Below are positions 64-44,640 of a stretch of DNA of 50,126 nt, piece after piece; position 1 is the stretch's first letter; each line of letters starts with the position of its first letter. The notes under the pieces were generated by a model that was not told the origin of the DNA, did no database searches, and was given only the letters and a program-made list of their open reading frames with translations. The position numbers were made by a program, and so were the translations under genes. Source of the stretch: a phage; the sequence record PZ445405.1, one strand, 5' to 3'.

Positions 64-540
64 ATGAATTGGGCTGAATTTTTTAGATACGAAGATGGAA
101 ATCTGGTAAGGGTTACCACAACCTCAAGTAGAGCTATTGAGGGCATGGTTGCTGGAAGCTTGTCTGGCAATGGCTATCTGCACATAAGAATAGGCGACAG
201 GCGTGTAAAAAACCATCTCATAATTTGGGAGATGCACAATGGAAGGATACCAGAAGGGATGGAGATAGATCATATCAATCACATAAAGACAGATAACAGG
301 ATCGAGAATTTAAGGCTCGTAAGTCACAAACAGAACCTATCAAACGCATCTCTTAGGTCAGACTCGTCAACTGGTGCGAGTGGCGTTAGTTGGAACAGAA
401 ACAGGCAGAAGTGGCACGCTTATATAAAGTCTAACTACAAGAGGATGCACATAGGATTTTTTGATTCCTTTGATGATGCCGTAGCAGCAAGAAAGAAAAA
501 GGAGATTGAATTGGGATTTCATGAGAATCACGGAAAATAG
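64..540 (+). CDS. HNH homing endonuclease (HNH + AP2-like DNA-binding domain), copy 1
   Basis: Motif EIDHINHIKTDNRIENLRLVSHKQN; paralogous to ORFs at 30756-31235 and 37032-37517 (all start MNW..); ATG at 64 preferred over GTG at 55. Confidence 0.8.
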   Translation: MNWAEFFRYEDGNLVRVTTTSSRAIEGMVAGSLSGNGYLHIRIGDRRVKNHLIIWEMHNGRIPEGMEIDHINHIKTDNRIENLRLVSHKQNLSNASLRSDSSTGASGVSWNRNRQKWHAYIKSNYKRMHIGFFDSFDDAVAARKKKEIELGFHENHGK

Positions 541-611
541 CACGAATTGCTAAACGACTAGGCCACGGATGGCGTATAGTTACCTTACCAAAACGAGAGG
601 AGAAAAGATAA
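537..611 (+). promoter_or_regulatory. Conserved promoter cassette: box ATAGCACGAATTGCTAAA, 22-bp spacer with small hairpin, TATAGT (575-580), leader AAACGAGAGGAG
   Basis: Palindrome TAGCA-cgaat-TGCTA overlapping the TAG stop of the upstream gene; same architecture repeated about 20 times. Confidence 0.6.
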
Positions 612-10540: not shown

Positions 10541-10547
10541 AACACCA

Positions 10548-10569
10548 ACCCTCTTCGGAGGGTTTTTTA
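10548..10569 (+). terminator. Rho-independent terminator
   Basis: ACCCTC-ttcg-GAGGGT followed by TTTTTTATT. Confidence 0.7.
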
Positions 10570-10573: not shown

Positions 10574-10650
10574 ATAGCACTTTTTGCCAAAGATCTTATT
10601 CAACTTTGCTGTATAGTTACCTCATCGAAACGAAATGAGAGATTAAAGAA
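10574..10650 (+). promoter_or_regulatory. Promoter cassette, T-rich-centre variant (ATAGCACTTTTTGCCAAA, 22 bp, TATAGT 10612-10617, leader CATCGAAACG)
   Basis: Same geometry as the canonical cassette; drives the lipoprotein ORF. Confidence 0.55.
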
Positions 10651-15664: not shown

Positions 15665-15738
15665 ATAGCACGAATTGCTAAACACCAACGCGACGGATGG
15701 CGTATAGTTACTTCATCGAAACGAGAGGAGATAAATAA
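15665..15738 (+). promoter_or_regulatory. Canonical promoter cassette (box 15665-15682, TATAGT 15703-15708, leader CATCGAAACGAGAGGAG)
   Basis: Near-identical to the cassette at 537-611; TTGCTA to TATAGT spacing 22 bp. Confidence 0.6.
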
Positions 15739-22174: not shown

Positions 22175-22258
22175 TTTGTATTCCTTAGTAAGTTCGTTTC
22201 GTTTCGATGGAGTAATAGTATCGCATCCTTGCGATCAGTGTTTAGCAATTCGTGCTAT
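22175..22258 (-). promoter_or_regulatory. Canonical promoter cassette on the minus strand (box at 22241-22258)
   Basis: Reverse complement reads ATAGCACGAATTGCTAAA, 22 bp, TACTAT, CATCGAAACGAAACG; the box also encodes the C-terminus (NSTNC) and stop of the upstream gene. Confidence 0.55.
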
Positions 22259-22931: not shown

Positions 22932-23003
22932 ATTAAAACCCCTCTCGTTAAAGTGCGGCGATTATACCGCGCAAAATTTATTGTTCTTTGGCAATTCGTG
23001 CCA
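22932..23003 (-). promoter_or_regulatory. Promoter cassette variant on the minus strand (box TGGCAcgaatTGCCA, 22 bp, TATAAT, leader AACGAGAGGGG)
   Basis: Perfect palindrome variant of the box; -10 TATAAT (rc of 22961-22966); upstream stop codon abuts the box. Confidence 0.55.
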
Positions 23004-23005
23004 TA

Positions 23006-24172: not shown

Positions 24173-24276
24173 GATTTGATGTTCGGCCTGAAATTCAGGT
24201 TGGATGACGACACCATTGCCGCCATGCGCCTAAATATAACTAAAGATACCCAGTTGTCTTTAGCAATTAGTGCTAT
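24173..24276 (-). promoter_or_regulatory. Promoter cassette on the minus strand (box at 24259-24276, centre CTAAT; -10 TATATT)
   Basis: Reverse complement ATAGCACTAATTGCTAAA followed 22 bp later by TATATT; long leader with a possible 18-codon upstream ORF. Confidence 0.45.
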
Positions 24277-25927: not shown

Positions 25928-26002
25928 ATAGCACGAATTGCTAAAGACAAAATTAACGAGTGGGGTATGATTGCCCCATCAACAACGAACGAGGTTAAAA
26001 TT
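25928..26002 (+). promoter_or_regulatory. Canonical promoter cassette (box 25928-25945, TATGAT 25966-25971, leader CATCAACAACGAACGAGG)
   Basis: Box overlaps the stop of the upstream gene; 22-bp spacing conserved. Confidence 0.55.
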
Positions 26003-26077
26003 ATGAATCTTCACCCATTTACATATATCCACATTACTGCTTGGATCGGTTTGTTCATTTACTTATTCAATCGATAA
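26003..26077 (+). CDS. Possible 24-codon hydrophobic leader peptide (MNLHPFTYIHITAWIGLFIYLFNR)
   Basis: Short ORF between the cassette and the Erf gene; its stop overlaps the Erf SD. Confidence 0.2.
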   Translation: MNLHPFTYIHITAWIGLFIYLFNR

Positions 26078-26088
26078 GGATTTTAAAG

Positions 26089-26739
26089 ATGCAAATTTCA
26101 GAATCATTTAAGTCAATTTTAAGCGCTCTTCACACTGCTAAGTCGATGTTTGCTAAAGCAGAGAGGTCACAGCAAAACACACACCTTAAGAACAGGTACG
26201 CTAAATTAGAAGATGTTTTAGCTGCTGTTGAGCCAGGACTTGATGAGTGCGGATTAGTTATGTTCCAAAGCGTAATTGACGATGAGTCAACTAACAGATT
26301 AAAGGTTGAGACAAAAATATTCCATGCCGAATCTGGAGAGTGGGTTAGCTTCTTAATGATCGTCCCAATCAGTAAGAATGATGCGCAGGGTTACGGCTCA
26401 GCTTTAACATACGCTCGACGTTACGGAATAACGGCAGCTTTAGGCCTTAGCCAGGCAGATGATGATGGTAATCTCGCAGCGAAAGGCGTTAAAGACTTTA
26501 AGCGTGAACTTGAGAAGTGCAATACTCTTGATGAACTACGTAACGTCTGGAAAGAAGCAAAGCAGTCACTTGACGCGGCAGGTTGGAAGGTTTTCGAACC
26601 TCACATTATCGAACGCAAGGCAGAGATTGAGGCAAACGCGATGACTGGCTTCAACCCAGCAACACCAAAGAAAGTCGCAGAAAAAAGTAGTCATGAAGAA
26701 AAGATTGAAGTAGAATCACAACAAATCGAAACATTCTAA
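26089..26739 (+). CDS. Erf-family single-strand annealing protein
   Basis: Motifs LKNRYAKLEDVL and GYGSALTYARRYGITAALGL characteristic of the ERF superfamily. Confidence 0.75.
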   Translation: MQISESFKSILSALHTAKSMFAKAERSQQNTHLKNRYAKLEDVLAAVEPGLDECGLVMFQSVIDDESTNRLKVETKIFHAESGEWVSFLMIVPISKNDAQGYGSALTYARRYGITAALGLSQADDDGNLAAKGVKDFKRELEKCNTLDELRNVWKEAKQSLDAAGWKVFEPHIIERKAEIEANAMTGFNPATPKKVAEKSSHEEKIEVESQQIETF

Positions 26740-27228: not shown

Positions 27229-29748
27229 TTACCCAGTTGCTCCAGTAACTATATTTTTCCATCCAGTCCCTGTCGCAAAAGCAATTAATCCAGTACCCGT
27301 ACCAAACGATGCATTATTGTTAGTGCATGATTGATTTCCGGTGCGCTGGAGATTTGCAGCATCTACAGTTAAACCAAATCCATAGGCACGATAGTTGAAG
27401 CCACTTTTTGCATTTGATGGGATGAGCGAGTTACCATAGTTTATTGCACCGTAGATATCAACAATCCCTGCTGCGGTCGTTTCAATTGGATTTCCCGAAG
27501 TGGAAATAAGCGTTACGTTACTTGCCGTTACCATTCCTCCAGAATAAAACAGGGCAAGTTTTCCACTGTTCGCACCTGTAACATTACTCAGTATCACTCT
27601 TGGTGATGAGGCGTCTGCATTGGCAGCGAATTGCCTGAACAGATGGCCGTTAGAATAAACCATATCAGAAATGTTTATATTTTTTAACGTTCCTCCACGA
27701 ATTTGGCAGAGTGTTGCCTCTGTTTTATGATCTACCGACCCTTTTATAGTTACGTTGTCAACAACACCTCTCGTAACCAGGCACAATGAACTGTACTGGT
27801 CACCACTTAACAAAGTATTTTTTGACTTGATATTAACGTTAAGGATTCTTGACTTATCATTTCCAGATCCTTCACCACATGCGAATCCAAACTTAGAATT
27901 TCTTGGCGCATCCATGTCTAAGTTATAGACTGTGACACCAACAGACCCCCTAACGTCAACAACAGGAGTTGATATATTAGTTAAGTTAGTGGATACGCCT
28001 TCCACTACCACTTGATCAGCAAACACCTCGCCCAGGCCACGGTCGTAAATTTCACACAGTGCATGGCCCGCTCCAGGAATAGCGGATATATCATCAAATA
28101 TTGCATATTTAACCGTTGTTTTTGTTAGGTTATGATCAGCCCAAATTCTTACCGGAGCATGTTGGCAGGTGCCATGTATTCCCCGTACAGATACATGCTT
28201 AAACTCAACACCATCGTTACCTGCAAGCTTTACAGCACACAGAGTTGTGTCATTAAATAACCCTTCAACATCGATAAATGTGAAATTTCCTCGAGTCCCT
28301 AAGTCATATGATGCGTAATCTCCACCGGTCATTGCGAATAAGTCGTCTCCGGTATGACCACGTAGATTCCTTACATACGCATGGTAGATGGGTGGTTGCA
28401 AGTGAAGACCATCAGAGTGATTGTCAAACTCAAGACCCTGAGCATCAAGGTAATCAATATTCGCTACAAGATAGGCATACTTGAACGCCCCACCAACTTT
28501 AAGTCCACCACCAAGTTTTAGCCTTTTAACACCAGCTATACAGATGGCATGGGTATTAAGCCCTCCTGGAGCAGTACCGGATTTGTTATAATTTATAATT
28601 CCACCACCACGAATTCCAAGATAATCAGATTTTTTAGTCAGGTCCGAAGGGTTTGATATGGTATCAAACCAATACTCACTAATAAATAAAGGCATGTTTG
28701 TGCCTTCTACGTTTCTAATCTCTGTTCCTGCGTGAATCAATACATCCATATTGTTTTTTAGCAGTAAAGAACCATTTACCAACACAACTCCTTTGCAGTC
28801 AAAAACAAATTGAGAAATGAAAGATTGTCCTCCTAGCGACGAAAATACCGAGTTAATCCTTGCAGTATTCTCTTCTGCCGTAGAAGATGGGGATACACCA
28901 TAATCAGACATAAAATAAGTTTGCCCAACGCGCACATCCAAAGGCATAGGAACCCCAGGGCCATTTGGATTTGTGTATGTGACTAGTGACGAACCAGATC
29001 CAGAAGCTAAGTTAGCTCTTAATGATGTATCACTAGCTCTAACCCATGCACCAGGACCAATACCACCAGATGATTCAGGAGTTGATCCAGCTGGAACAAC
29101 CTTAGGTAACGTTCCTGACCAAAGGAACTGTACGGCATAACCATCAATGAATTGAATTATCACTTGGTTTTTTGACTGAAGAGTTACTCCATCATCAAAG
29201 TTACCAACCAGGGCTCCGGATACTGATTCAGCGGCACTCTGAGCGACGATTGCAGAATTGCTTGCAGATGACGCGGAACTAGAAGCTGAATCCTTGTCTG
29301 CTGATACCTGAGATGCATCAGATGATACCTGAGAAGCAATAGTAACAATTTCTCCAAACTGTGTGTTAACTTGGTTTACATCAGTTGAGAATTTATCATG
29401 ATCAAAATCCTTGAAAACATCAACCGCCTCTGCAATCGCAGTTTCACGCGACTGATAGTGACGAAGTGTTTCCGCAACATCTTGAGCTAAACCCTGAACG
29501 GTAATTCCATCATGCGCAAGGATTGCGTAACCAGTACCAGCAGGAACGGTTTCAGAATTAGGGTTGTAAACATTAATCTGCGTATCGCTGATAATTTCTG
29601 AGATGGTGTAAATTTTTACTGGTTCAGTTTTGAAAACAATGGTAGCACCTACGCGAATCAGTGTAAGCGGTGCTTTCCATGTAGTTCCCACGCCGGTCAC
29701 CTCGCCATTTGCGGATAACGACGCCGTTCCTAAGTCATAAATTGCCAT
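27229..29748 (-). CDS. Side tail fibre / tailspike-like protein (839 aa)
   Basis: Large Gly/Ser/Asn/Thr-rich protein with Ser-rich linker (SSDASQVSADKDSASSSASSASNS); start at ATG 29748 with SD GGAG. Confidence 0.6.
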   Translation of the reverse strand: MAIYDLGTASLSANGEVTGVGTTWKAPLTLIRVGATIVFKTEPVKIYTISEIISDTQINVYNPNSETVPAGTGYAILAHDGITVQGLAQDVAETLRHYQSRETAIAEAVDVFKDFDHDKFSTDVNQVNTQFGEIVTIASQVSSDASQVSADKDSASSSASSASNSAIVAQSAAESVSGALVGNFDDGVTLQSKNQVIIQFIDGYAVQFLWSGTLPKVVPAGSTPESSGGIGPGAWVRASDTSLRANLASGSGSSLVTYTNPNGPGVPMPLDVRVGQTYFMSDYGVSPSSTAEENTARINSVFSSLGGQSFISQFVFDCKGVVLVNGSLLLKNNMDVLIHAGTEIRNVEGTNMPLFISEYWFDTISNPSDLTKKSDYLGIRGGGIINYNKSGTAPGGLNTHAICIAGVKRLKLGGGLKVGGAFKYAYLVANIDYLDAQGLEFDNHSDGLHLQPPIYHAYVRNLRGHTGDDLFAMTGGDYASYDLGTRGNFTFIDVEGLFNDTTLCAVKLAGNDGVEFKHVSVRGIHGTCQHAPVRIWADHNLTKTTVKYAIFDDISAIPGAGHALCEIYDRGLGEVFADQVVVEGVSTNLTNISTPVVDVRGSVGVTVYNLDMDAPRNSKFGFACGEGSGNDKSRILNVNIKSKNTLLSGDQYSSLCLVTRGVVDNVTIKGSVDHKTEATLCQIRGGTLKNINISDMVYSNGHLFRQFAANADASSPRVILSNVTGANSGKLALFYSGGMVTASNVTLISTSGNPIETTAAGIVDIYGAINYGNSLIPSNAKSGFNYRAYGFGLTVDAANLQRTGNQSCTNNNASFGTGTGLIAFATGTGWKNIVTGATG

Positions 29749-29771
29749 AATTTCAACTCCTATTTTTATTG

Positions 29772-29789
29772 ATAGCACGAATTGCTAAA
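29772..29789 (+). promoter_or_regulatory. Orphan palindromic box ATAGCACGAATTGCTAAA without downstream -10 or leader
   Basis: Perfect box lying between two minus-strand genes, 24 nt from the tail-fibre start codon. Confidence 0.4.
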
Positions 29790-29811
29790 GTGGATTGTAT
29801 CATCTTTAGGG

Positions 29812-29842
29812 CATAAAAAAACCTCCCGAAGGAGGTTAGTTT
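29812..29842. terminator. Bidirectional terminator overlapping the primase stop codon
   Basis: CCTCC-cgaa-GGAGG flanked by A7 and TTAGTTT. Confidence 0.55.
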
Positions 29843-30759
29843 AGTAGTTCGCTTGCCTTATAGATTCTCTTTCTTATTCCTGACTTGAAAAAATTATCAT
29901 CATTTGGCATTACCACATCAATATTGCGATCGTCAGCAACGGCGAGTAAATCAAGATCGTGGCGAGTACAAGCGATGCGTAACTTGTATTTTCTAAGCGC
30001 GTAAGCAACCATTTCCATGTTGTAGATGGAGTAGCAAACAAGCACGCAGCGGTTGCCAGTAGCAATGTGAACACGATAGCCGTCAATGAGATTATCGACC
30101 AGATAAGCGTAATCATCATCCTTAAAGGAACCAATAACAGAAACAGATTGGCGAGTATAATCTTTTGCAGCATAACTAACACCTCCATATTCATTGATAA
30201 ACATTACATTACACATTTCTTCTGATATGCCGTCACTATAAGCCATAAAGCACGGCACTGCGTGTATTAGTTCGCCTGATTTTGTTCTGCCAACATCAAA
30301 GCCAAACTCGCTATAGATTCCCTCGTATGTACTGAGCGGAGTTGATTCTACTCTTTCAGTCCTTTCCATTATCTCTAAGCATCTTTCGTGGTCAATCTGA
30401 GCGCCCATTTTGTAGATCTGGGTTCTTGATGCTTGCTTGTTTGCTTTAACTATAACCTCAATTGGTGTTAAGTTCAGCCAGTCACCAAGCAAATTTACTG
30501 AATCGGCGAAGGACGATCCAGTGCACTTCATGACCCATCCTATACCGGAGTCACTCCCGCATTTCGAACAAACTGCCGCGCCATTTCCTTTTTCACTGCC
30601 TATTTCGTCGGTAAATCTGAATCTGTCAGTGCCAAAGCAGTATGGGCATGGTCCGTGCTTCTTACTTAGGTGTCTATCATTCCAACCAAGTTCCTTTGCA
30701 TAAAATGATTTCCACAATCCGGCCATCTTAGGTATAACTTCATTCTTATCGTAATTCAT
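29836..30759 (-). CDS. DNA primase-like protein with zinc-ribbon
   Basis: Cys motifs CPYCFG..CSKCGSD in the N-terminal region; ATGA coupling with the upstream HNH gene; replication gene context. Confidence 0.5.
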   Translation of the reverse strand: MNYDKNEVIPKMAGLWKSFYAKELGWNDRHLSKKHGPCPYCFGTDRFRFTDEIGSEKGNGAAVCSKCGSDSGIGWVMKCTGSSFADSVNLLGDWLNLTPIEVIVKANKQASRTQIYKMGAQIDHERCLEIMERTERVESTPLSTYEGIYSEFGFDVGRTKSGELIHAVPCFMAYSDGISEEMCNVMFINEYGGVSYAAKDYTRQSVSVIGSFKDDDYAYLVDNLIDGYRVHIATGNRCVLVCYSIYNMEMVAYALRKYKLRIACTRHDLDLLAVADDRNIDVVMPNDDNFFKSGIRKRIYKASELLN

Positions 30760-31235
30760 TTGCTTAACCCGTGATTTTCGTGAAAGTTGTATTTTCTCTC
30801 TGCTTCAATTCTTACTTTATACGCCTGCTCTGGAGTATCGAAGTTCCCAAGGTGTAACTGCTTACCGTCAACCTTGATGTGAGCCTTAAATTTTCCGTGA
30901 TTTAGCTTTGCCACTCCACAATAACCAGTTGTTGATAAAACGCTAAGCCTGCAATTTCTTGAGTTACCTTGATTTGTTGTTACTCTTAGGTTTTCTATTC
31001 TGTTATCTAATTTGTTATGGTTTATATGATCAATGTAGTCGCCATTTTGAAGTTCTCCATTAAACATCTCCCACACAACTCTATGTACGTAAGTCCTAAA
31101 GCCATTAACAGACACTTTGTAATAGCCAGATGTAGATAGTGAGTTGCACTCATCGCCAACCTTAACACGTCTTGCAGTGCTAATCTTCCAATGCAATTTG
31201 CCATCTACATAGTAAAAATAATCATGCCAGTTCAT
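30756..31235 (-). CDS. HNH homing endonuclease (HNH + AP2-like), copy 2
   Basis: Motifs DHINHNKLDNRIENLRVTT and paralogy to the other two copies. Confidence 0.8.
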   Translation of the reverse strand: MNWHDYFYYVDGKLHWKISTARRVKVGDECNSLSTSGYYKVSVNGFRTYVHRVVWEMFNGELQNGDYIDHINHNKLDNRIENLRVTTNQGNSRNCRLSVLSTTGYCGVAKLNHGKFKAHIKVDGKQLHLGNFDTPEQAYKVRIEAERKYNFHENHGLSK

Positions 31236-31308
31236 TTTCTTCTCTCCAATAAAAAAGGATGTACCGATTATGGCACATCCAATCCTTTAATCTTTAGCTT
31301 TTCGTGCT
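31236..31308 (-). promoter_or_regulatory. Cassette variant upstream of HNH-2 (box AGCACGAAAAGCTAAAG, terminator hairpin, CATAAT, TTTTTTATTGGAGA RBS junction)
   Basis: Box overlaps the C-terminus and stop of the upstream gene; hairpin GGATGT..ACATCC. Confidence 0.45.
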
Positions 31309-31760
31309 GCTTCGTTAGCTGCCTTAATCTTGCGCCACGATCGACACTCTGGCTTGGTGGCCAGTTCAGCCTCAGTTACCACACGCAGCATGTGACGTTT
31401 TTTGCAGCGTAGAGTTAGTGGTTTTCCGTTACCGTCGAATTGCAGGTCTGGTCTACAGAATGTGGCGCGAAAACCTTCTCCGGTTCGTTTGTAGTAGTTG
31501 TGCGACAGTTGAGCGCCACGTGCAGAAATCATACCACGCTTAAACCACTCTTCTACAGCCTGCGGCGTTACCTTTAACTGCTTTGCGATATTCGCCTTTG
31601 TGCCGAAGAAATCAAGAATCATCTCTAACCTTGCGCGTAACCCAGCCCTTACCTCATCTTTCAAAACGTAGTAACCTGAAGGTCGCTTTCGCTGCTTTTT
31701 ATCTTCAGTGCGGATGGTTCCGTTATTGCCGTTAATGGTTCGCTTGTCAATTGTACTCAT
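31287..31760 (-). CDS. Putative HTH DNA-binding protein (157 aa)
   Basis: HTH-like segment ANIAKQLKVTPQAVEEWFKRGMIS; basic; first gene of an early minus-strand operon. Confidence 0.45.
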   Translation of the reverse strand: MSTIDKRTINGNNGTIRTEDKKQRKRPSGYYVLKDEVRAGLRARLEMILDFFGTKANIAKQLKVTPQAVEEWFKRGMISARGAQLSHNYYKRTGEGFRATFCRPDLQFDGNGKPLTLRCKKRHMLRVVTEAELATKPECRSWRKIKAANEAARKAKD

Positions 31761-31772
31761 TTCATTACCTCG

Positions 31773-31861
31773 ATAGCATTTTTTGTTAAAAGTCATTCTG
31801 ATTTGATGGTAGTATTGTACTCAATTAAACGCTACAAGACAATTTTTATAGGAATTTAGAT
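31773..31861 (+). promoter_or_regulatory. T-rich-centre cassette upstream of the helicase gene (ATAGCATTTTTTGTTAAAAG)
   Basis: Box-like sequence followed at about 21 bp by TAGTAT; ATG at 31862. Confidence 0.4.
31814..31842 (-). promoter_or_regulatory. Sigma70-like promoter on the minus strand (TTGTCT, 17 bp, TACAAT)
   Basis: Canonical 17-bp spacing, divergent from the helicase cassette; would drive the HTH, HNH-2, primase operon. Confidence 0.4.
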
Positions 31862-33856
31862 ATGTTGCCTATCGAGAAACTGGTTGCCAACTTTGATAAA
31901 GAAAGAATTAAACAGATTCAGAAAGACTATCAGTTTGGCGAGATAACCCCTTACGAGTTCCAGTGCGTCACATTTGATGCAATCGGAAAGGCCATTGGAA
32001 AGTACGAGGCACCATTTATCGCGGACCTTTCCGTGTCTGCTGGTAAGACAATCATTCTGGCTATGATTGGTAAGCGCATGGAGCAGCTTGGGCTTCCTTA
32101 TATGGTTCTCTCTCGCCAGTCAGAAATTATCAGTCAGAACTCAGAAGAGCTTCGTAATTTCGGTATCCGTAACAGCGTCTATTGCGCCGGCCTCAACGTT
32201 AAATCGGTTTACTACCCAACCATAGTTGCTAGCGAGGGTACGGCAGCTAACGGCTTGTTTAAGGGTCTTGGTGACTACGTTCCTGCTGTTATAGCTATTG
32301 ATGAGTGTCATATGGTGGACCATATGGATATCGTGGAAGCTGAAGAGAACGAAGAAACATTTGAGCAAATGAGCACAAAGAAAGGCGAGATGGTTTTCAA
32401 GGATGGTGTTAACACTGGATTGATAGGCACAGGGCGAGCGCAGTACACACTAATTATCACTGAGATGAAACGTCGCTGCCGCGAGAAGTACGGTCGTGAG
32501 CTTCGTATATTCGGTCTAACTGGCAGCCCGTATCGTAACAACGATCATATCGTCGTTAGCAACCCAAACATCCGTGGATTTTGGCGCAAGACGGTTATTC
32601 AGGTTCCAACCAATTACCTGGTTGATTTAGGTTTCGTTGTTCCCACAGTTTACGGTGAAGTTGGCGATCTGGGATATGACCTTGCGGAGTTTGCGCCGGA
32701 TGGCAGTGATGGCGTGAAAGACTTTAGCAAGAAAGAAATGGAAGCGATGCAGGAAAAAATTCATCAAAACCAGTCCATGACTCAAAAGATTATGGGTTTT
32801 GTTGTAAAAATACTAGAGACTCGTAACGCCGCATTGGTAACGTGTGCTGGTAAACTTCACTGCGAAGAAGCTGCTGCAGCGCTACCAGATGGATACCCTT
32901 ACGCCATCATCACAGACTCTACTGGTGAGAGGAAGCGCAGAGAGATTCTTGACGATTGCCAGACAGGGAAGTATAAAATAATATTCCAGATTGGTTGTCT
33001 AACTACGGGGGTGTCGGTTCCACCGTGGGATACAAGCGTTATACTTAGAAAGATCGGCAGCCTTACACTACTGATCCAGCTACTTGGTAGGGGTATGCGA
33101 ATACTCAAGAAGAAACATAAAGAACTTGGAATGGTTAAGGACGATCATTTGGTTCTTGATTTCGCTGGTGCGCTTGATGACATGGCGGAGCTTTACTTTG
33201 ACCCAATTATTGAAGAGATTCAGGCTGAGAAGTTTAAATCATCAAGAAAAGGTGGCGATGAGGTTCGCCAGTGTCCGCAATGTGGTTATGAGAACTCTCC
33301 GTTCGCTCGCAGGTGTGGTAACAAGATTGATGGAAAGCGTTGTGAGCACTTTTTCAGCTTTACGGTTTGTGAAGATATTACTGACCCGCAAACAAAGGCT
33401 GTTATAAAGAAAGGCTGCGGTACTCGCAATGACATAGCAGCAAAGGTTTGCAGGGAATGCGGAGAGATGCTTAAAGACCCAAATGCTAACCTGACTGGCA
33501 AGATGTATCGTCGTGGTGATTACCTTCGTGTTTATGATTTTCAAGTTGGGTTAAGTAAGAATCAGACAGGCATTGTAGTTAAGTACAACATCATGGCGCA
33601 TAACGGAGAGAGGTTTAATGCTTGGGAGTTCTTTAATCCAGAATCAGACCATAGAGTTTGCAGTGTGCTTTGGAAGAACTTCTGCCTTGCTCATATTGAG
33701 AATCGAACTGAGGCCGCGCGAATTGGAAGACTGAAGAATGCCAGAATGATTATGACTAACTTGGATAAGTTCCGTGCGCCAGTTCAGGTTACACACCGAA
33801 GGAATGGCAAAGGAAAGGACGTGATCGCTTTTAAGAATTTTGGAGAATTGCTATGA
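31862..33856 (+). CDS. ATP-dependent DNA helicase (SF2-like) with C-terminal zinc-ribbons
   Basis: Walker A-like SAGKT, DECH box (IAIDECHMVD), C-terminal CPQCGYEN..CGNK and CRECGEM Cys clusters. Confidence 0.7.
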   Translation: MLPIEKLVANFDKERIKQIQKDYQFGEITPYEFQCVTFDAIGKAIGKYEAPFIADLSVSAGKTIILAMIGKRMEQLGLPYMVLSRQSEIISQNSEELRNFGIRNSVYCAGLNVKSVYYPTIVASEGTAANGLFKGLGDYVPAVIAIDECHMVDHMDIVEAEENEETFEQMSTKKGEMVFKDGVNTGLIGTGRAQYTLIITEMKRRCREKYGRELRIFGLTGSPYRNNDHIVVSNPNIRGFWRKTVIQVPTNYLVDLGFVVPTVYGEVGDLGYDLAEFAPDGSDGVKDFSKKEMEAMQEKIHQNQSMTQKIMGFVVKILETRNAALVTCAGKLHCEEAAAALPDGYPYAIITDSTGERKRREILDDCQTGKYKIIFQIGCLTTGVSVPPWDTSVILRKIGSLTLLIQLLGRGMRILKKKHKELGMVKDDHLVLDFAGALDDMAELYFDPIIEEIQAEKFKSSRKGGDEVRQCPQCGYENSPFARRCGNKIDGKRCEHFFSFTVCEDITDPQTKAVIKKGCGTRNDIAAKVCRECGEMLKDPNANLTGKMYRRGDYLRVYDFQVGLSKNQTGIVVKYNIMAHNGERFNAWEFFNPESDHRVCSVLWKNFCLAHIENRTEAARIGRLKNARMIMTNLDKFRAPVQVTHRRNGKGKDVIAFKNFGELL

Positions 33857-34272
33857 ACATAACAGATAAAGAAGATTACATTGAGTTTTACCCGGGCCCG
33901 GTTAAGTATTGCCCTAAAGAGGATGACGAGCAAATCTTTTGCTCTGATTGGGTTAAGTATCATTACCCTCAGATTGTTTACTGGCACACGGTTAATGAAT
34001 CGATGAAGACCATTGGACAGGCAAGAAAAGACCAGGCCAAAGGTTTGCTTAAGGGGGTTTCGGACTGCTTATTCCTGATACCTGAATCACTTCGTGGTAA
34101 ATACCCTTTTGGAGCCATAGAGCTAAAAAGGGCCGGGAAGACGCAGGCGAGTCCAGTCAGCGACGAACAGAAGTCCTTCCTTAAGAGCGTCAGAGAATCG
34201 GGCGGCTTCGGGGCTGTAGCTTACGGACGTGAGGGTTTTCTTGCGGCATTCAAAGAAATGATTTCAAAATAG
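33853..34272 (+). CDS. VRR-NUC domain nuclease (putative)
   Basis: Motif GVSDCLFLIPESLRGKYPFGAIELKR (D..E.K core); ATGA coupling to the helicase gene. Confidence 0.55.
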   Translation: MNITDKEDYIEFYPGPVKYCPKEDDEQIFCSDWVKYHYPQIVYWHTVNESMKTIGQARKDQAKGLLKGVSDCLFLIPESLRGKYPFGAIELKRAGKTQASPVSDEQKSFLKSVRESGGFGAVAYGREGFLAAFKEMISK

Positions 34273-34350
34273 CACGAATTGCTAAAGACGTTTCGGTGAG
34301 TTGGTGTATTATCTATTCATCGAAACGAAACGCACAAAGAGAGAAACAAA
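34269..34350 (+). promoter_or_regulatory. Canonical promoter cassette (box 34269-34286, TATTAT 34307-34312, leader CATCGAAACGAAACG)
   Basis: Box contains the TAG stop of the upstream gene; 22-bp spacing. Confidence 0.55.
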
Positions 34351-34641
34351 ATGGCTACTATCTATACTGGTAAATTCTACGAATCACGCAAAACTGGTTA
34401 TGAGTATGAATTAGTAATAACCCCAGAAGGTTATGTACTTGATGATGGTGAAGGGTACGCATTCGAAGTTAGCCCGACTTACAAAGATGATTTAGAAACT
34501 GTTAAAAACGCATTTGGCGAAAAATTTGATGTTATTGATGATGGTGATGGCTACGCATTCGAAGTTAGCCCAACCTACAAAGATGATTTAGAAACTGTTA
34601 AAAACGCATTTGGCGAAAAAATTGATGAGGTATCAGAGTAA
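34351..34641 (+). CDS. Hypothetical acidic protein with internal 32-aa tandem duplication
   Basis: Two 96-bp direct repeats (34441-34536 and 34537-34632) encoding DDGEGYAFEVSPTYKDDLETVKNAFGEK twice. Confidence 0.5.
   Translation: MATIYTGKFYESRKTGYEYELVITPEGYVLDDGEGYAFEVSPTYKDDLETVKNAFGEKFDVIDDGDGYAFEVSPTYKDDLETVKNAFGEKIDEVSE
34441..34632 (+). repeat. Tandem 96-bp in-frame duplication (2 units, about 93% identical)
   Basis: Direct comparison of the two units shows only about 7 substitutions. Confidence 0.8.
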
Positions 34642-34862
34642 TGGCAATTTTTACACTTGAAAAACAATGGGAAGTTTTCCAGTCGATGGTGGATCAGGAG
34701 TTGCATAAAGCTGGGTATAAACATGAAGGCTGGGATATGGCTTGGTGCCTGGATATGAGCTTTGAAGAAGACTACCTGAATACTGATATCGAAACGTGGC
34801 GCGACCGCATGGTTGCAGACATTGAAGAAATGAAGAAAGATTGCCCGGAGGATTTCTTATGA
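34641..34862 (+). CDS. Hypothetical protein (73 aa)
   Basis: TAATG overlap with the upstream gene. Confidence 0.4.
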   Translation: MAIFTLEKQWEVFQSMVDQELHKAGYKHEGWDMAWCLDMSFEEDYLNTDIETWRDRMVADIEEMKKDCPEDFL

Positions 34863-35050
34863 TTGGAATCTGCGTAAAAACAAATGGACGCTTTACACTG
34901 CTCGAGGATTACGAAATCAACTTTGATTCAGGCGGCGCAATAACAGTAAAAGGAGAAGATGAATTACATTGGTTCCTTAGTTATCAAGGTGATGGCTACT
35001 ACGGTTGCACGGATTGCTACGGAAAAGAAGTTAGCTTCTTAGTAGAATAG
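34859..35050 (+). CDS. Hypothetical protein (63 aa)
   Basis: ATGA overlap with the upstream gene; SD GGAG. Confidence 0.35.
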   Translation: MIGICVKTNGRFTLLEDYEINFDSGGAITVKGEDELHWFLSYQGDGYYGCTDCYGKEVSFLVE

Positions 35051-35120
35051 CACTTTTTGTTAAAACTCAAATCCAGGGATGGATTATATTAAGCACATAA
35101 ACAACGAAGAGGGTTAAGAG
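35047..35120 (+). promoter_or_regulatory. T-rich-centre cassette (ATAGCACTTTTTGTTAAAAC, 22 bp, TATATT 35085-35090)
   Basis: Box overlaps the TAG stop of the upstream gene; leader with SD AAGAGGG. Confidence 0.5.
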
Positions 35121-35246
35121 ATGAAAATTGTAGACAAAGAGATGTTCGAGATCGCACAAGCATACGCAAATGACGCAGTTAAAACTGGTTCGGAATACTG
35201 CTGGATGTGCGCTAAAGAATACCTGAAAATGGCTTACGGGTTATGA
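35121..35246 (+). CDS. Hypothetical small protein (41 aa, CWMC motif)
   Basis: First ORF after the cassette; ATGA-coupled to the next ORF. Confidence 0.3.
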   Translation: MKIVDKEMFEIAQAYANDAVKTGSEYCWMCAKEYLKMAYGL

Positions 35247-35491
35247 TAGTTGAAACCGGTCGCGCCGCAGTTTGGGCGCACTGTGGAGAGGCTGGTTTGC
35301 AAGATGACATTAAGCAGATATCCCGCTTCTTTGACATAAAAGATATCAGTGTCGTGTTCAATGGTAAATTCTCTTACATGGATGAGCGCCCAAGAAAATA
35401 CGTAAGAGTTAAGCCAGGTGTCAGGATTGATGTTAATGAGTTCCTTAAATCTGAGGGATTCAAGTTTAAGATAACGAAGCCTAAGGATTGA
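35243..35491 (+). CDS. Hypothetical protein (82 aa)
   Basis: ORF from the six-frame track, coupled to flanking genes. Confidence 0.4.
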   Translation: MIVETGRAAVWAHCGEAGLQDDIKQISRFFDIKDISVVFNGKFSYMDERPRKYVRVKPGVRIDVNEFLKSEGFKFKITKPKD

Positions 35492-36959: not shown

Positions 36960-37031
36960 ATAGCACCTTTTGTTAAAACAGTAGCCGCGAAAGCGGCTAT
37001 TATTGTTTTATACAAACGATAGGAGATTGAA
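36960..37031 (+). promoter_or_regulatory. T-rich-centre cassette upstream of HNH-3 (ATAGCACCTTTTGTTAAAAC, hairpin, TATTAT 36998-37003)
   Basis: 22-bp spacing; hairpin AGCCGCG-aaa-GCGGCT in the spacer; SD AGGAG. Confidence 0.5.
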
Positions 37032-37517
37032 ATGAATTGGCATGATATTTTTGAATACAACGATGGCATTCTTTATCATAAAGTTAAGTTATGTATAAGA
37101 AATGATGTTAACGTTGGTGATATTGCTGGGGGGGGCGTTAGGCAAAACGGCTATCACTACGTGAATTACAAAAATAAGTTTTACAAAAGGTCAAGGGTTG
37201 TATGGGAGATGTTTAATGGAGATATACCTGAGGGATTTGTCATTGATCACGTCAACCATGACGCGACAGATGACAGGATAGAAAACCTAGAGTGCAAGGA
37301 GCGCAGGGATAACATGGTTAATGTAAAGCTAAGGATTGATAGCTCCTCTGGTGTAACTGGTGTAGCAAGAAAGAGCGGTAATAAGTGGAGGGCATACATA
37401 ACAATCATGGGTAAGCAGAAGTCCAAGAGCTTTAACACGTTTGAGGATGCTTGCGCACAGAGGATTGAATGGTCGGTAACTCATGATTTTCACCCAAATC
37501 ACGGTGGAAAATACTAA
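37032..37517 (+). CDS. HNH homing endonuclease (HNH + AP2-like), copy 3
   Basis: Motif VIDHVNHDATDDRIENLE and paralogy to copies 1 and 2. Confidence 0.8.
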   Translation: MNWHDIFEYNDGILYHKVKLCIRNDVNVGDIAGGGVRQNGYHYVNYKNKFYKRSRVVWEMFNGDIPEGFVIDHVNHDATDDRIENLECKERRDNMVNVKLRIDSSSGVTGVARKSGNKWRAYITIMGKQKSKSFNTFEDACAQRIEWSVTHDFHPNHGGKY

Positions 37518-37602
37518 ATAGCACTTTTTGCCTAACCCATGCCGTAGAAATGCGGCATAATCACCACATCGAAACGAGATTAACTAAACGAGGAAACGCA
37601 AG
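37518..37602 (+). promoter_or_regulatory. T-rich-centre cassette (ATAGCACTTTTTGCCTAAC, hairpin, CATAAT 37556-37561, leader CATCGAAACGAG)
   Basis: 22-bp spacing; hairpin ATGCCG-tagaa-ATGCGGCAT. Confidence 0.5.
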
Positions 37603-39338: not shown

Positions 39339-40922
39339 TCACCCCAGCAGTCGTGGATTAATGTAAACTTTATCACCAATCAGGCATGTATAGTTTTTCT
39401 CATCTAACATCGGCAGCAAGTGGTCTTTAATCTTTGTCATCACTCCAGCCTGAGACTCGAACGGCTTAACCTTGCGCGCAGCCTCATACAATGAACGAAT
39501 GCCAACTACGCCTTTCCCGTTCTTTCCTTGCTTGATAAGGATATCAATCAGCTTATTCATCTCGGCATTGTCGCCAGCGTGACCAGCGGCGTTAGCAGAT
39601 GACAGATAAGTCTTGCTAAGCTCCTGGAACATGATTACAGCCTCTTGCATTGTGTCCAGTCCAATCTCTCTGGACTTCTGCGGGCTTCCGCCATTTGGGT
39701 TAAACCAGTTACGGACAGTGTGAATAACTGCGGCAATCCTGATAGCCTGCTTATCGAACTTGCCCAGCGCGCCGCGCAACATAGTATGTGAATACTTACC
39801 GCCATCAGCAAGATGGGGCTCCATTTCCTGACGTGCACGGTTGAGATATTTCATCGCTGAGTTACTCACTGTCAGCTTTACTTCCTGCTCGCTCATGATT
39901 TCGTGAACCAAGCGGAAGTAGTCAGCCTTCAGTCCGCTGTCAATTGGCTCGTATGTTGACTCTCCATTCTCATCAACGAATACACGTTCGCCCAGGAAGG
40001 ACTTTTCACGCACAAGCAGAAAACGCTCCGACACACCGATACCACGCGCACCAGCATTCATAATGGCGTTGATTGTTTCGTCCTGCGCAATTACCGAGAT
40101 GCAACCCATAGCAACGAAACTCATGTTGTTCTCTGCGTTCGCACGCGCGATAGATACGTTACCAGCATCCCATGCTTTAAGCACGAGTTCACTGTTTGTT
40201 TTCTTTGAGCCATCTCCATAGGTCATGCCCAGAAGTGAGTTCACGCTCGTCGCCTCATCCGAGATTACTGCGAAGTTTCCCTGGCGGTTGTTTATTCGCG
40301 CAAGTCCCTCAGGCGTGGTGTCGGATACGGGGAAAACGATATCGCATAGCTTCTCGAGTTTCTCCTCCAACTCCTCTTTCTCTTCAAAAAGTGAAGCCAT
40401 CTCTGAAGGAGATTTTTCCTGCTTCATCTCTTTGGATAATGCAGATAGTTTGGCCATAATCTTTTTGCGCTCGCGTTTTCGCAATTCATTTAGTCGCTCA
40501 GTCTCGGCAATCATCGGGGCAATAGAAAGTGAGTTAATCGCTGATTTACCGGTCGATGGAGGTTGACTTGTAACTACGTAAAGAGATGTTGGCTGCTGCG
40601 TTCCGTGATACTCAACAGTAAAGCGGCCCAGCATAGCAGCGGAAATGCAACCCAAAAAGTGCATATAAGCTGAAGACTCCGGGAACTGAACAGAACGAGC
40701 AATGTTGGCTGACAGTCTACCAACAACGTCAACATCATTTCCGAGCGAGATTACAGGATACTTGTCATTGGCCGCATCAATCTCGACCGGTGCTTTCCAG
40801 AATGACTGAGACTGGCGATAGCCATTAGCATTGATAGCCACGCGCAGGGGTGGGAGGTTTTCTGCGGCAGCTATTGCCATAACTTGTTCAACAGATAGTT
40901 TATCTTCGTTGAAATCAAACAT
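39339..40922 (-). CDS. Replicative P-loop NTPase (primase-helicase / SF3 helicase-like)
   Basis: Walker A PSTGKS and Walker B-like AVISDEAT; N- and C-terminal regions shared with the paralog at 43766-44293. Confidence 0.6.
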   Translation of the reverse strand: MFDFNEDKLSVEQVMAIAAAENLPPLRVAINANGYRQSQSFWKAPVEIDAANDKYPVISLGNDVDVVGRLSANIARSVQFPESSAYMHFLGCISAAMLGRFTVEYHGTQQPTSLYVVTSQPPSTGKSAINSLSIAPMIAETERLNELRKRERKKIMAKLSALSKEMKQEKSPSEMASLFEEKEELEEKLEKLCDIVFPVSDTTPEGLARINNRQGNFAVISDEATSVNSLLGMTYGDGSKKTNSELVLKAWDAGNVSIARANAENNMSFVAMGCISVIAQDETINAIMNAGARGIGVSERFLLVREKSFLGERVFVDENGESTYEPIDSGLKADYFRLVHEIMSEQEVKLTVSNSAMKYLNRARQEMEPHLADGGKYSHTMLRGALGKFDKQAIRIAAVIHTVRNWFNPNGGSPQKSREIGLDTMQEAVIMFQELSKTYLSSANAAGHAGDNAEMNKLIDILIKQGKNGKGVVGIRSLYEAARKVKPFESQAGVMTKIKDHLLPMLDEKNYTCLIGDKVYINPRLLG

Positions 40923-40996
40923 TATTTCTCTCCGTGCTGATTCTGAGCGGTCATTATATCAACGACCGCTTATAATTCATTATCAATTTTTGCTAT

Positions 40997-41347: not shown

Positions 41348-41428
41348 TTTATTTACCTTTCGTTATTTCGTTTCGATGAGATGAATATACAGGAAAAGCC
41401 CCCGAAGGGCTTTATCAATTAGTGCTAT
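41348..41428 (-). promoter_or_regulatory. Promoter cassette on the minus strand (box rc of 41411-41428, terminator-like hairpin in spacer, TATATT, leader CATCGAAACGAAA)
   Basis: Box ATAGCACTAATTGATAAA; spacer 23 bp contains GCCC-ttcg-GGGGC; the box encodes the C-terminal NSTN-stop of the upstream small ORF. Confidence 0.5.
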
Positions 41429-42620: not shown

Positions 42621-42692
42621 ATCTATACCCTCGTTGTTGATGAGCTAACTATACCCTCAACAGCCGCGCTTGTCTTTAGCAAAAAGTGCTAT
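42621..42692 (-). promoter_or_regulatory. T-rich-centre cassette on the minus strand (box rc of 42675-42692, TATAGT, leader CATCAACAACGAGGG)
   Basis: Reverse complement ATAGCACTTTTTGCTAAA; spacing 22-23 bp. Confidence 0.5.
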
Positions 42693-42699: not shown

Positions 42700-42800
42700 A
42701 TTTATGGATTGTTGCGGATATTGCAATGATTCCCATGATTATTGCACATATAGCAATATTGCTTCAGATGCAATGATGTTTTTGATTGTTGCGAAATGAG
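42700..42800. repeat. Cluster of short direct repeats (GATTGTTGCG x2, TGCAATGAT x2, ATTGC motifs) in ORF-free DNA
   Basis: Repeated 9-10-mers read directly; no credible ORF. Confidence 0.5.
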
Positions 42801-42865
42801 CAATAAAGTAGTGAGTGAGTGAATGAAAGATGGATGGACTACCATACAAGTTGATTTTGATTCTG

Positions 42866-43200
42866 CTAATCCATTTTCACGCTTACACGTAACGCCCGTA
42901 GCGCGATGTAAGCCAACGCCTATCGTTACGCGAGTTACGCGCAGCTACGCCTAGACTTACACTATAAGTGCCTAATATATATATATATCTTCTTTCTATT
43001 ATTATTATTATTATTATTATTATTGTATGTAAGTCATGTAACGGGGTTTCCGGCGATATCTATATGTTTTTTCCTATCAGTTATAGCCTTGGCTATAATT
43101 TAAGGTATGGAGTGGGTGTTTTGGGGCCATTTGCCTCGTTACACGCACGACACGCCACTTACATTAAGCTATAGCTGGGCTAGCATACCATTTCGCGTAA
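42866..43200. repeat. Iteron plus microsatellite control region B (paralog of region A)
   Basis: ACGTAAC 42887, CGATGTA 42904, G(T/C)TACGC x3 at 42925/42934/42944, (AT)7 42975-42988, (TAT)9 42997-43023, palindrome AGCTATAGCT 43167-43176. Confidence 0.7.
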
Positions 43201-43229
43201 CGACCCCCAAAAGTTACCAAAAATTACAC

Positions 43230-43258
43230 TTGACTACATGTGTAAGTCGGGATATGAT
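43230..43258 (+). promoter_or_regulatory. Strong sigma70-type promoter (TTGACT, 17 bp, TATGAT) with conserved leader
   Basis: Near-consensus hexamers at canonical spacing; leader AAACGAGAGGAG precedes ATG 43290. Confidence 0.6.
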
Positions 43259-43289
43259 GGACTCAACTTAAACGAGAGGAGTGATAGAG

Positions 43290-43769
43290 ATGAACGAGAA
43301 AGTAACATTGGGCCAAGTGATTCGTGAGATGGTGAAAGCAGCGCTTAAGTCTGAGGACAAGCAGATCAGCGTGACACTCAACAAGATTGAGAGCCTTATC
43401 GGCGCCGAGGAGGGTGGTCTAAATAAGCTTAAGAGCTCATACATCTACAATACAACGGCTCGCATGCCTGAGTTGAGAGATGCCGGACTGAAGGCGACTC
43501 ACCACTATGATGAAGAAAGGGGTGTTAATGAATATACTGGGAGTGAGATACTTGGAGACAAAAAGCTTGTTATTAAACTAATTCCAGGCTCGGCAAACAT
43601 TGGAATCAGGAAGAAGACCAACGACGCGATCAAGGATGAGGCAATCACTGAGTTCAAAGCCAGGATTTCTAAGGTGATGCCAGACCTTTCTGCGTATGAA
43701 GGTGAGGCCCTTGCAGCCGCTATGAAGGCCATTAAGGATTACCGTTTGATTATTGAGGAGATTAAGTGA
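43290..43769 (+). CDS. Hypothetical protein (159 aa), likely immediate-early
   Basis: First gene behind the sigma70 promoter; SD GAGGAG. Confidence 0.45.
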   Translation: MNEKVTLGQVIREMVKAALKSEDKQISVTLNKIESLIGAEEGGLNKLKSSYIYNTTARMPELRDAGLKATHHYDEERGVNEYTGSEILGDKKLVIKLIPGSANIGIRKKTNDAIKDEAITEFKARISKVMPDLSAYEGEALAAAMKAIKDYRLIIEEIK

Positions 43770-44293: not shown

Positions 44294-44363
44294 CACGAAT
44301 TGCTAAACAATGGATCGGGTAGTCAGCTATGATTACTTCATCGACAACAAAGAGGAAATGAAG
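44290..44363 (+). promoter_or_regulatory. Canonical promoter cassette (box 44290-44307, TATGAT 44328-44333, leader CATCGACAACAAAGAGG)
   Basis: Box contains the TAG stop of the upstream gene; 22-bp spacing. Confidence 0.55.
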
Positions 44364-44570
44364 ATGAAAAACGTTATTATTGAAGATATTCACTTTGACC
44401 AAGCTGAGGTAGGAATCGCAAAAAGCGTTCGCGGAAACGTTGTATATCTGAACTTCGATCCAGATAACTACGGGGACGGCCAGACACTGATGCAGTACAG
44501 TCCTGAGCAAGCACGCAAACTGGCGGCGGCGTTAATCATGGCAGCGGACGAGGCGGAGAAGCAGCGATAG
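44364..44570 (+). CDS. Hypothetical protein (68 aa)
   Basis: ATG 44364 at good distance from SD AAGAGG; start ambiguous with 44358. Confidence 0.4.
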   Translation: MKNVIIEDIHFDQAEVGIAKSVRGNVVYLNFDPDNYGDGQTLMQYSPEQARKLAAALIMAADEAEKQR

Positions 44571-44640
44571 CACGAATTGTTAAAAAGGGATTCATCCTGA
44601 CTGGTATAATCCCCACATCAACAACGAGACACTACTTATC
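44567..44640 (+). promoter_or_regulatory. Promoter cassette (box ATAGCACGAATTGTTAAA, 22 bp, extended -10 TGGTATAAT 44602-44610)
   Basis: Leader CATCAACAACGAGAC but no substantial ORF until 44826. Confidence 0.5.

Follow-up and report, generated by a model that had tools for sequence, protein, structure and literature searches.

Promoter cassettes repeated across an Rtp-like coliphage genome resemble class II promoters of MarA, SoxS, and Rob and may be served by these host activators

The 50,126 nucleotides of phage DNA in sequence record PZ445405.1, which were analyzed at full length and are referred to here as the window, carry about 23 copies of a promoter cassette organized around a 20-bp box with the consensus ATAGCACnnnTTGyTAAAnn. 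To judge from the sequence, these cassettes are very probably promoters that lack a −35 element and rely on asymmetric binding of a protein at −50 to −31. The box matches the marbox, i.e., the site recognized by the host activators MarA, SoxS, and Rob, and we consider the chances evenly balanced that the cassettes are class II promoters served by host activators of this type. The box itself is not new, as it corresponds to a published repeat with unexplained function; new here are the fixed 18-bp link to the −10 element, the marbox match, and the occurrence in Murrayvirus.

The window is ~88% identical to the Escherichia phages RobRod40 and Rtp (T1 family, Drexlerviridae). One copy of the box is broken by the window ends, with its first three bases (ATA) at 50124–50126 (+) and its positions 4–20 at 1–17 (GCACTTTATGCAAAGAA). 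As the box is joined across both ends, the window is a complete, circularly permuted genome of 50,126 bp, that of an Rtp-like (T1-family) coliphage. A search for TAGCACGAATTGCTA with up to three mismatches returned 20 matches in the window compared to 1.9 expected, and none of 100 shuffles reached 20. All 21 sites listed in the original prediction were recovered at their coordinate and strand by a sequence check of the whole window, and two further copies came to light: an orphan box without a −10 (29772–29791, +) and a degenerate copy (40977–40996, −). The same element was described in a paper on phage TLS from 2024 (PMC11447400) as a 21-nt direct repeat (aaATAGCACnnnTTGnTAAAA) found in 21 places of TLS. 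The repeats of TLS, T1, and Rogue1 were located ~76 nt 5′ of start codons along the direction of transcription, with the strongest conservation in ATAGCAC and TAAAA. Stoperators, enhancer sites, or UP elements were proposed, and the function of the repeat was posed as an open question for T1-like phages.

Within a cassette, the 20-bp box is followed by 18 bp, the −10, ~6 nt, a conserved C-A, and a short A/C-rich leader that ends in GAGG or GGAG before the start codon, which is found ~75 nt from the box start. In the cassette at 537–611 (+), for example, the box (537–556, ATAGCACGAATTGCTAAACG) and its 18-bp spacer lead to the −10 TATAGT (575–580), a predicted start at ~587, and the ATG at 612 of a virion protein gene, followed by the portal gene. 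The gap between box and −10 measures 18 bp in 17–18 sites of the window, 19 bp in two, and 17 bp in one. Across five T1-like genomes, 76 TAGCA-seeded sites combine a gap of 18 with a good −10, compared to 5–15 at every other gap tested. The proposed spacing of 22 bp between TTGCTA and the −10 corresponds to 18 bp when counted from where the 20-bp box ends, and is the rule but not exact everywhere; the proposed leader CATCGAAACGAGAGGAG holds as a consensus with many variants and no invariant string. The −10 hexamers in the window (TATAGT, TATAAT, TATGAT, TATTAT, TATATT, CATAAT, and TACTAT) share four to six of six positions with TATAAT, and G occurs at −14 in 54 of the 70 sites of a logo derived from the five T1-like genomes. 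The predicted start is the conserved C-A, 7 nt past the −10, so that the box spans −50 to −31 with its centre at −40.5. Among the starts predicted in this way are 587, 10624, 15715, 25978, 34319, 44340, 45491, and 46480 (+) and 22208, 22954, 24225, and 42641 (−). At the −35 position, only 1.1 of six bases on average match TTGACA in the window, and TTGCTA, 22 bp from the −10, lies beyond the reach of sigma-70, as had been pointed out. Together with the near-consensus −10 and the G at −14, this bears out the class II activator position replacing the −35 that had been suggested, and the dyad centre had correctly been placed near −42 relative to the predicted start.

In no part of the window were canonical sigma-70 promoters more frequent than in shuffled sequence. 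A natural contrast is provided by the only intergenic box-free promoter (43230–43258, +), which carries the −10 (TATGAT) and leader module of the cassettes (...AAACGAGAGGAG, ATG 43290) and, 17 bp upstream of the −10, a genuine −35 (TTGACT) in the place of the box. Terminator-like hairpins of upstream genes lie inside the spacer between box and −10 at 45456–45475, 36980–37001, and ~41398–41410, a packing into 18 bp that is possible only because no −35 sequence is needed there. Control of one temporal gene class, as initially assumed, finds no support in the distribution of the boxes, which precede early small genes as well as genes for replication, recombination, lysis, heads, and tails.

The box had also been interpreted as a palindrome (TAGCA-N5-TGCTA) read by a dimer. 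To assess its symmetry, sites were seeded on one dyad arm and conservation was measured in the other arm. In the 70-site logo, G at position 4 reaches 1.70 bits, compared to only 0.48 bits at the mirror position 14, and the left arm TAGCA is present in ~68 sites, about twofold more than the exact right arm TGCTA (~30 sites). Moreover, A1, C7, A17, and A18, which lie outside the 5-bp arms, are conserved as strongly as the arms but in no case show complementarity to the mirror position (e.g., C7/T11 and A1/A17, conserved yet non-complementary). Conservation is therefore asymmetric, and a monomer with two different reading heads fits better than a symmetric dimer.

Two forms of the marbox consensus for MarA, SoxS, and Rob have been published, AYnGCACnnWnnRYYAAAY, which was called ‘degenerate and asymmetrical’, and gcannwwntgnnaaa. 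The latter has 19 exact matches in the window compared to 1.0 expected (maximum of six in 200 shuffles), and the former has 20 matches with at most one mismatch compared to 1.2 expected; the box at 537–556 shows 0 mismatches to both. The chance of a match to the Martin consensus is ~2.4e-7 per 19-mer. All of the marbox positions A1, T2, G4, C5, A6, C7, W10, G13, Y14, Y15, and A16–18 are conserved in the 70-site logo from five genomes, and the sole departure is Y19, which is A in most phage sites and also in micF. Enterobacter phage vB_Ecl_MII_001, tried as a distant relative, proved to be lambdoid with only the portal in common and served as a negative control, with one marbox match compared to 0.74 expected.

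The arrangement of the phage promoters agrees with that of known class II marbox promoters, for which a forward box overlapping the −35, sites clustered near −41, a canonical −10, and no recognizable −35 (mean of 1.9 matches at that position) have been published. As in micF, every box with a −10 is in forward orientation relative to the gene that it precedes. In E. coli K-12, the measured micF promoter comprises the marbox ACAGCACTGAATGTCAAAAC, 18 bp, TAGAAT, and 7 nt to the annotated 5′ end; lpxC P2 likewise has 18 bp between marbox and −10, fumC has 17 bp, and the class I box of mar is reversed, as expected. No marbox was detected at the thresholds used in the stretches examined for nfo and inaA, which were included as an extra calibration. 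Consensus, forward orientation, position and spacing, and an absent −35 with a canonical −10 are all as would be predicted for class II promoters of MarA, SoxS, and Rob.

Further marbox-like sites were seen on E. coli replicons. In the fumA-fumC region, the class II marbox of fumC is situated directly 3′ of the fumA terminator, a terminator-then-marbox layout as in the phage cassettes. The exact box is absent from the E. coli core genome (chromosome search). Near-copies occur on ~316 large E. coli plasmids, many of them F-type, without the −10 arrangement at 18 bp. On plasmid pEC187_1 (1480–1521), a near-perfect box (ATAGCACTAATTGCTAAAAC) follows a partial second copy between ccdA and a gene for a 162-aa hypothetical protein, which is unrelated to the phage DUF7174 protein.

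An exact-box scan of viral contigs identified Enterobacteria phage IME_EC2 (Murrayvirus), a podovirus with 59% G+C and P22-type virion genes. IME_EC2 and Salmonella phage Lumpael carry five to six exact boxes compared to 0.14 expected, in forward orientation and 18–19 bp from TATAGT-type hexamers (cassettes at 59, 28267, 36230, and 37538 in IME_EC2, and at 3035, 4800, and 8693 in Lumpael). Virion genes of these two Murrayvirus phages are unrelated to those of T1-likes, and the common part is limited to the replication/recombination module. The A/T-rich box is kept exactly despite the 59% G+C of the Murrayvirus genome, and the T1-type leader CATCGAAACGA is replaced by a conserved G+C-rich 5′ hairpin (e.g., GGCGGGAAATGGTCCCGCC) before the ribosome-binding site. 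What the two lineages share is precisely the portion of the cassette with which the transcription machinery would be in contact. A further record, ‘Stutzerimonas phage STP9’ (OR754315.1; partial genome, 55.8% G+C), contains seven exact boxes, mostly 18 bp from the −10, along with the same replication module; as the record is flagged UNVERIFIED_ORG, its stated host is not trustworthy, and we rejected it as a test outside Enterobacterales. The replication module and two small proteins, a gp17-like protein and a 73-aa protein, are common to all box-bearing lineages.

With regard to the reader of the box, the earliest phage genes lie behind boxes, so the reader should exist before infection, and the occurrence of the box in a second lineage likewise favors a reader supplied by the cell before the phage arrives. 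No homolog of MarA, SoxS, or Rob was found by profile and phmmer searches among six-frame open reading frames (ORFs) of eight box-bearing genomes (best hit <10 bits, controls >200). We propose that each cassette would act as a sigma-70 class II activator-dependent promoter with a 20-bp asymmetric site in place of the −35, and that the box would be a marbox for monomeric AraC-family activators with a pair of helix-turn-helix (HTH) motifs, namely MarA, SoxS, and Rob (RamA in Klebsiella and Salmonella). At DNA entry, one of these host activators would already be present, with Rob as the constitutively made member, and would place one HTH at GCAC and the other at the AAA element. Once bound, it would recruit RNA polymerase via sigma-70 region 4 and the alpha C-terminal domain, as at E. 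coli micF, where published complexes have the activator at about −35 to −45 in contact with sigma region 4 and the alpha C-terminal domain just upstream. The phage would then need neither a −35 nor an activator of its own for most transcription units. We infer the start sites, the binding itself, the acting paralog, and whether the box is essential or merely stimulatory.

Several observations weigh against host activators as readers. Compared to host marboxes, the phage box is far less degenerate, and its conservation extends to the consensus-free positions A3 and T11 and to A at −1 and 0, so that a dedicated reader with more stringent requirements is conceivable. T1-likes grow fast in ordinary broth, although unstressed cells contain little MarA and SoxS and keep most of their Rob sequestered. 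The replication module and the two small proteins that accompany the box are compatible with shared ancestry and a shared phage factor. Literature searches returned neither binding, transcription, or 5′-end data for these phages nor a paper that ties marboxes to them. Finally, a Keio single-knockout screen for phage LL5, which is >90% identical to the box-bearing TLS, yielded only lipopolysaccharide genes, tolC, secB, and ppiB; rob, marA, and soxS were not flagged, which disfavors strict dependence on any one paralog. However, the paralogs MarA, SoxS, and Rob are redundant, and the screen had a cut-off of ~20-fold plating efficiency and was called noisy by its authors.

Alternatively, a phage-encoded protein could read the box and activate, in which case the likeness to the marbox would be coincidence or mimicry. 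We regard this as unlikely, though it is the main rival, with the gp17-like protein (82 aa; 35243–35491, +), possibly together with the 73-aa protein (34641–34862), as the lead candidate. At the profile level, the gp17-like protein is the only uncharacterized protein present in every box-bearing genome examined (five of five T1-like genomes, IME_EC2, Lumpael, and STP9), and the 73-aa protein is present in four of the five T1-like genomes and in all three others. The tightness of the box compared to host marboxes and the missing requirement for rob, marA, or soxS in the Keio screen would fit a dedicated phage protein as well. However, both genes are located within the shared replication module, so their co-occurrence with the box may be mere linkage, and the gp17-like gene lies 3′ of a box promoter in both lineages and so could not start the programme. 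Furthermore, 82 aa is small for a monomer that reads an asymmetric 18–20-bp site. Neither protein has a Pfam domain or an annotated PHROG function, and the AlphaFold model of the gp17-like protein is uninformative (predicted local distance difference test score, pLDDT, of 49.9, too low for use). A chance match to 14–15 specified marbox positions, combined with orientation and spacing, is very unlikely.

Three phage genes had previously been named as candidate regulators. DUF7174 (43281–43769) and the Rha-like ORF are outside the family-core genes, and the third, ORF 31287–31760 (−), is missing from the Murrayvirus phages that have the same box. An immediate-early activator encoded behind the box-free promoter was also considered and dismissed, as DUF7174 is not conserved in the family and the next ORF (43766–44293) is a truncated helicase paralog. 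Among the core genes, the only regulator recognized was a Cro-like protein, the product of ORF 31287–31760. This protein resembles Rtp52 and T1 gp23; in RefSeq, rtp52 is labeled a transcriptional regulator with similarity to T1 gp23. Its AlphaFold model contains one Cro-type HTH and an extra domain (pLDDT 85.7), and the best Foldseek matches are Cro of Xfaso-1, N15, and P22, all of them weak (E ≥ 0.05). Based on the model and these matches, the idea of a double-HTH protein was rejected. The protein is the regulator of a proposal from 2006, when Wietzorrek and colleagues, in their paper on Rtp, reportedly connected Rtp52, as a putative regulator, with ‘10 conserved inverted repeats’, which correspond to the box.

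Composite control appears improbable to us. Here, a host factor of the MarA/SoxS/Rob type would activate, and a phage protein bound to the partial dyad (the Rtp52-like protein in T1-likes) would modulate or shut down some units later. Such a scheme would accommodate full marbox features and a partial dyad in one box, and it could make use of the reversed boxes over the tail-fibre transcript start and in the leader of the Rtp52-like gene, i.e., positions where a bound protein would repress. It is purely inferential, and Murrayvirus manages without Rtp52.

Slightly more doubtful still is a box that works without any activator, either as an upstream element read by RNA polymerase (UP-like or a displaced −35) that boosts an extended −10, or as a stoperator or repressor site. 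With the strong −10 and the common G at −14, basal activity is plausible, an alpha C-terminal domain would be accommodated by the A-rich flank (−52 to −50), and UP elements and stoperators are among the ideas listed in the TLS paper. UP elements, A/T tracts at −40 to −60 for the alpha C-terminal domain, are almost pure A/T, whereas G4, C5, C7, and G13 are near-invariant in the box, and a displaced −35 at TTGCTA could not be spanned by sigma-70. Stoperators (L5 type) belong to temperate repressor systems and keep no fixed distance to a −10, whereas the phage spacing is fixed at 18 bp in a virulent T1-like organization that lacks an integrase, a repressor, and a lysogeny module.

Of all explanations considered, a Cro-type dimer of the Rtp52-like protein on TAGCA-N5-TGCTA, activating from −42 like lambda cI at PRM or else repressing, seems to us the most improbable, despite its status as a T1-like core gene with a confidently Cro-like fold, the 5-bp inverted repeat in the box, and a box in its own 5′ leader that makes autoregulation possible: Rtp52 homologs are absent from IME_EC2 and Lumpael (best E of 0.33 and 0.46, respectively) in spite of their five to six boxes with the same spacing, the recognition helix varies (TPQAVEEWFKRG here, CVRLTNAYRLRG in Vc1) while the Vc1 box stays identical, conservation is asymmetric and reaches past the dyad at non-complementary positions, and the structural matches are weak. 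An operator of the Cro/cI type is likewise set aside, as neither two-fold symmetry nor co-occurrence with the regulator nor co-variation with its helix was found. Murrayvirus has an XRE regulator of its own without counterpart in T1-likes. It is thus unlikely that the Rtp52-like protein is the universal reader of the box.

Cassettes are found on both strands of the window. The copy cut by the window ends (1–63, +) has a −10 TAACAT at 36–41, overlapped by CATAAT at 39–44, and leads to the ATG at 64 of an HNH endonuclease gene. The cassette at 10574–10650 (+; box 10574–10593, −10 TATAGT 10612–10617, ATG 10651) lies directly 3′ of a terminator (10547–10564), and that at 15665–15738 (+; box 15665–15684, −10 TATAGT 15703–15708, ATG 15739) belongs to the tail region. 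Three cassettes on the minus strand follow at 22175–22258 (box 22239–22258, −10 TACTAT 22215–22220, start codon 22174), 22932–23004 (box 22985–23004, ATGGCACGAATTGCCAAAGA, −10 TATAAT 22961–22966, start codon 22931 of a DNA methyltransferase gene), and 24173–24276 (box 24257–24276, −10 TATATT 24233–24238, start codon 24172 of the Rha-like ORF). On the plus strand, the cassette at 25928–26002 (box 25928–25947, −10 TATGAT 25966–25971, ATG 26003) precedes a 24-codon ORF and then erf.

The degenerate cassette at 31236–31310 (−; box 31291–31310, GCAGCACGAAAAGCTAAAGA, −10 CATAAT 31267–31272, start codon 31235) serves an HNH endonuclease gene and then the primase gene, whereas the helicase cassette at 31773–31861 (+; box 31773–31792, −10 TAGTAT 31810–31815, ATG 31862) has the 17-bp gap, and its box falls within the 5′ leader of the Rtp52-like gene, which is divergent. 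Four more plus-strand cassettes are found at 34269–34350 (box 34269–34288, −10 TATTAT 34307–34312, ATG 34351), 35047–35120 (box 35047–35066, −10 TATATT 35085–35090, ATG 35121), which is predicted to drive the gp17-like gene, 36960–37031 (box 36960–36979, −10 TATTAT 36998–37003, ATG 37032 of an HNH gene), with the hairpin 36980–37001 in its spacer, and 37518–37602 (box 37518–37537, −10 CATAAT 37556–37561, ATG 37603), 5′ of the lysis genes. The minus strand carries the degenerate cassette at 40923–40996 (box 40977–40996, ATAGCAAAAATTGATAATGA, 18-bp gap, −10 TATAAT 40953–40958, start codon 40922) of the helicase/DUF3987 gene and the two cassettes with a 19-bp gap, at 41348–41428 (box 41409–41428, hairpin in the gap, −10 TATATT 41384–41389, start codon 41347) and 42621–42692 (box 42673–42692, −10 TATAGT 42648–42653, start codon 42620).

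Five cassettes, all on the plus strand, occupy the early region: 44290–44357 (box 44290–44309, −10 TATGAT 44328–44333, ATG 44358), 44567–44610 (box 44567–44586, −10 TATAAT 44605–44610, start codon uncertain), 45441–45513 (box 45441–45460, hairpin 45456–45475 in the spacer, −10 TATAGT 45479–45484, ATG 45514), 45863–45936 (box 45863–45882, −10 TATAGT 45901–45906, ATG 45937), and 46430–46505 (box 46430–46449, −10 TATAAT 46468–46473, ATG 46506).

Two sites differ in layout from the rest. The orphan box at 29772–29791 (region 29746–29840), which has no −10 at 17–19 bp, is reversed relative to both flanking minus-strand genes (primase and tail fibre) and is conserved at the corresponding position of Rtp (33762) and T1 (34888). 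Along the minus strand, this box lies just past a terminator (29837–29820) and an extended −10-like sequence (TGATACAAT), over the tail-fibre transcript start, a position at which a bound protein would repress, not activate. Between the helicase gene and the Rtp52-like gene (31760–31862), divergent −10s overlap (TAGTAT 31810–31815, +, and TACAAT 31814–31819, −), so that RNA polymerase could be directed to one gene or the other depending on whether the box is occupied.

Regarding neighboring features, the region 42700–43290 is the only long box-free non-coding region of the window. It contains (ATT)n and (TA)n microsatellites at ~42975–43025 and one canonical sigma-70 promoter, and corresponds to the genome-end region of Rtp. 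ORF 43766–44293 encodes a 175-aa truncated paralog, composed of N- and C-terminal parts, of the phage DUF3987-type helicase (39339–40922). Three HNH homing-endonuclease genes (64–540, 30756–31235, and 37032–37517) are each positioned directly behind a cassette of their own, two of which are degenerate, which suggests that these are mobile genes that travel with a cassette or insert beside one. The 24-codon ORF behind the cassette at 25928 (26003–26077) is hydrophobic (MNLHPFTYIHITAWIGLFIYLFNR) and out of frame with the erf ORF (26041–26739), whereas the matching cassette of Rtp leads directly into erf; it may result from a frameshift or encode a small leader or membrane peptide.

In a broader sense, virulent phages of enterobacteria with at least two kinds of virion, namely T1-like siphoviruses and Murrayvirus podoviruses, may have wired nearly all of their transcription to the host stress activators MarA, SoxS, Rob, and RamA, which respond to antibiotic, oxidative, and bile stress. 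We put this forward tentatively, as somewhat short of an even prospect. Expression would then rise under host stress (bile salts in the gut, salicylate, and redox drugs), and the ~20 high-affinity marboxes on each replicating DNA copy would form a sponge for the regulators. The marbox reading offers a testable answer to the question of repeat function raised in the TLS paper. If true, it would explain the scarcity of findable sigma-70 promoters in this large, industrially troublesome phage family and would clearly exemplify how a virulent phage can use a host stress regulon as its main transcription switch. It would also tie phage productivity to regulators of intrinsic antibiotic resistance, with a bearing on phage-antibiotic combinations and on behavior in the bile-rich gut.

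Among known systems, T4-type phages offer two comparisons. The promoter-early stem-loop (PeSL) cassettes share with the box cassettes the format of a compact, repeated promoter cassette before many small genes, often right after a terminator, but they are ordinary sigma-70 early promoters with a −35 and no activator site. The T4 middle promoters, which depend on the MotA box and AsiA, likewise form a phage-wide class with an activator box instead of a −35, and TGCTT and TTGCTA bear a superficial likeness; however, the MotA box is centred at −30, is separated from the −10 by 11–13 bp compared to 22 bp for TTGCTA, and requires MotA and AsiA, and no motA or asiA was seen among the recognized core genes. 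A sigma-54 promoter (TGGCAC-N5-TTGCW) was rejected as well, as the box (TAGCAC-N3-TTGC) has AG in place of GG at every site but one and is 2 bp short, and as sigma-54 promoters have no −10 element, whereas the box is tightly linked to a −10, 22 bp downstream. Lambda cI at PRM (OR2 at −42) and class II promoters of CRP share an activator site at about −41/−42 that overlaps the −35 or takes its place, with contacts to sigma region 4 and alpha, but their sites are symmetric and bound by dimers, in contrast to the asymmetric phage box. The comparison with Mor and C of phage Mu, made in the original prediction, remains a loose analogy, and the marbox of MarA, SoxS, and Rob fits far more precisely. 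Class II promoters of the E. coli/Salmonella mar/sox/rob regulon (micF, fumC, lpxC P2, lpxL P1, and rfaY P1) share with the phage cassettes the 20-bp asymmetric consensus, the forward orientation, the overlap with the −35, the centre near −41, the 17–18 bp to the −10, the missing −35, and the canonical −10. Compared to these host sites, the phage boxes, which the same activators would bind, are far less degenerate, come joined to a standard leader with its ribosome-binding site, and occur in a virulent phage at ~20 per 50 kb, roughly 50 times the density expected by chance.

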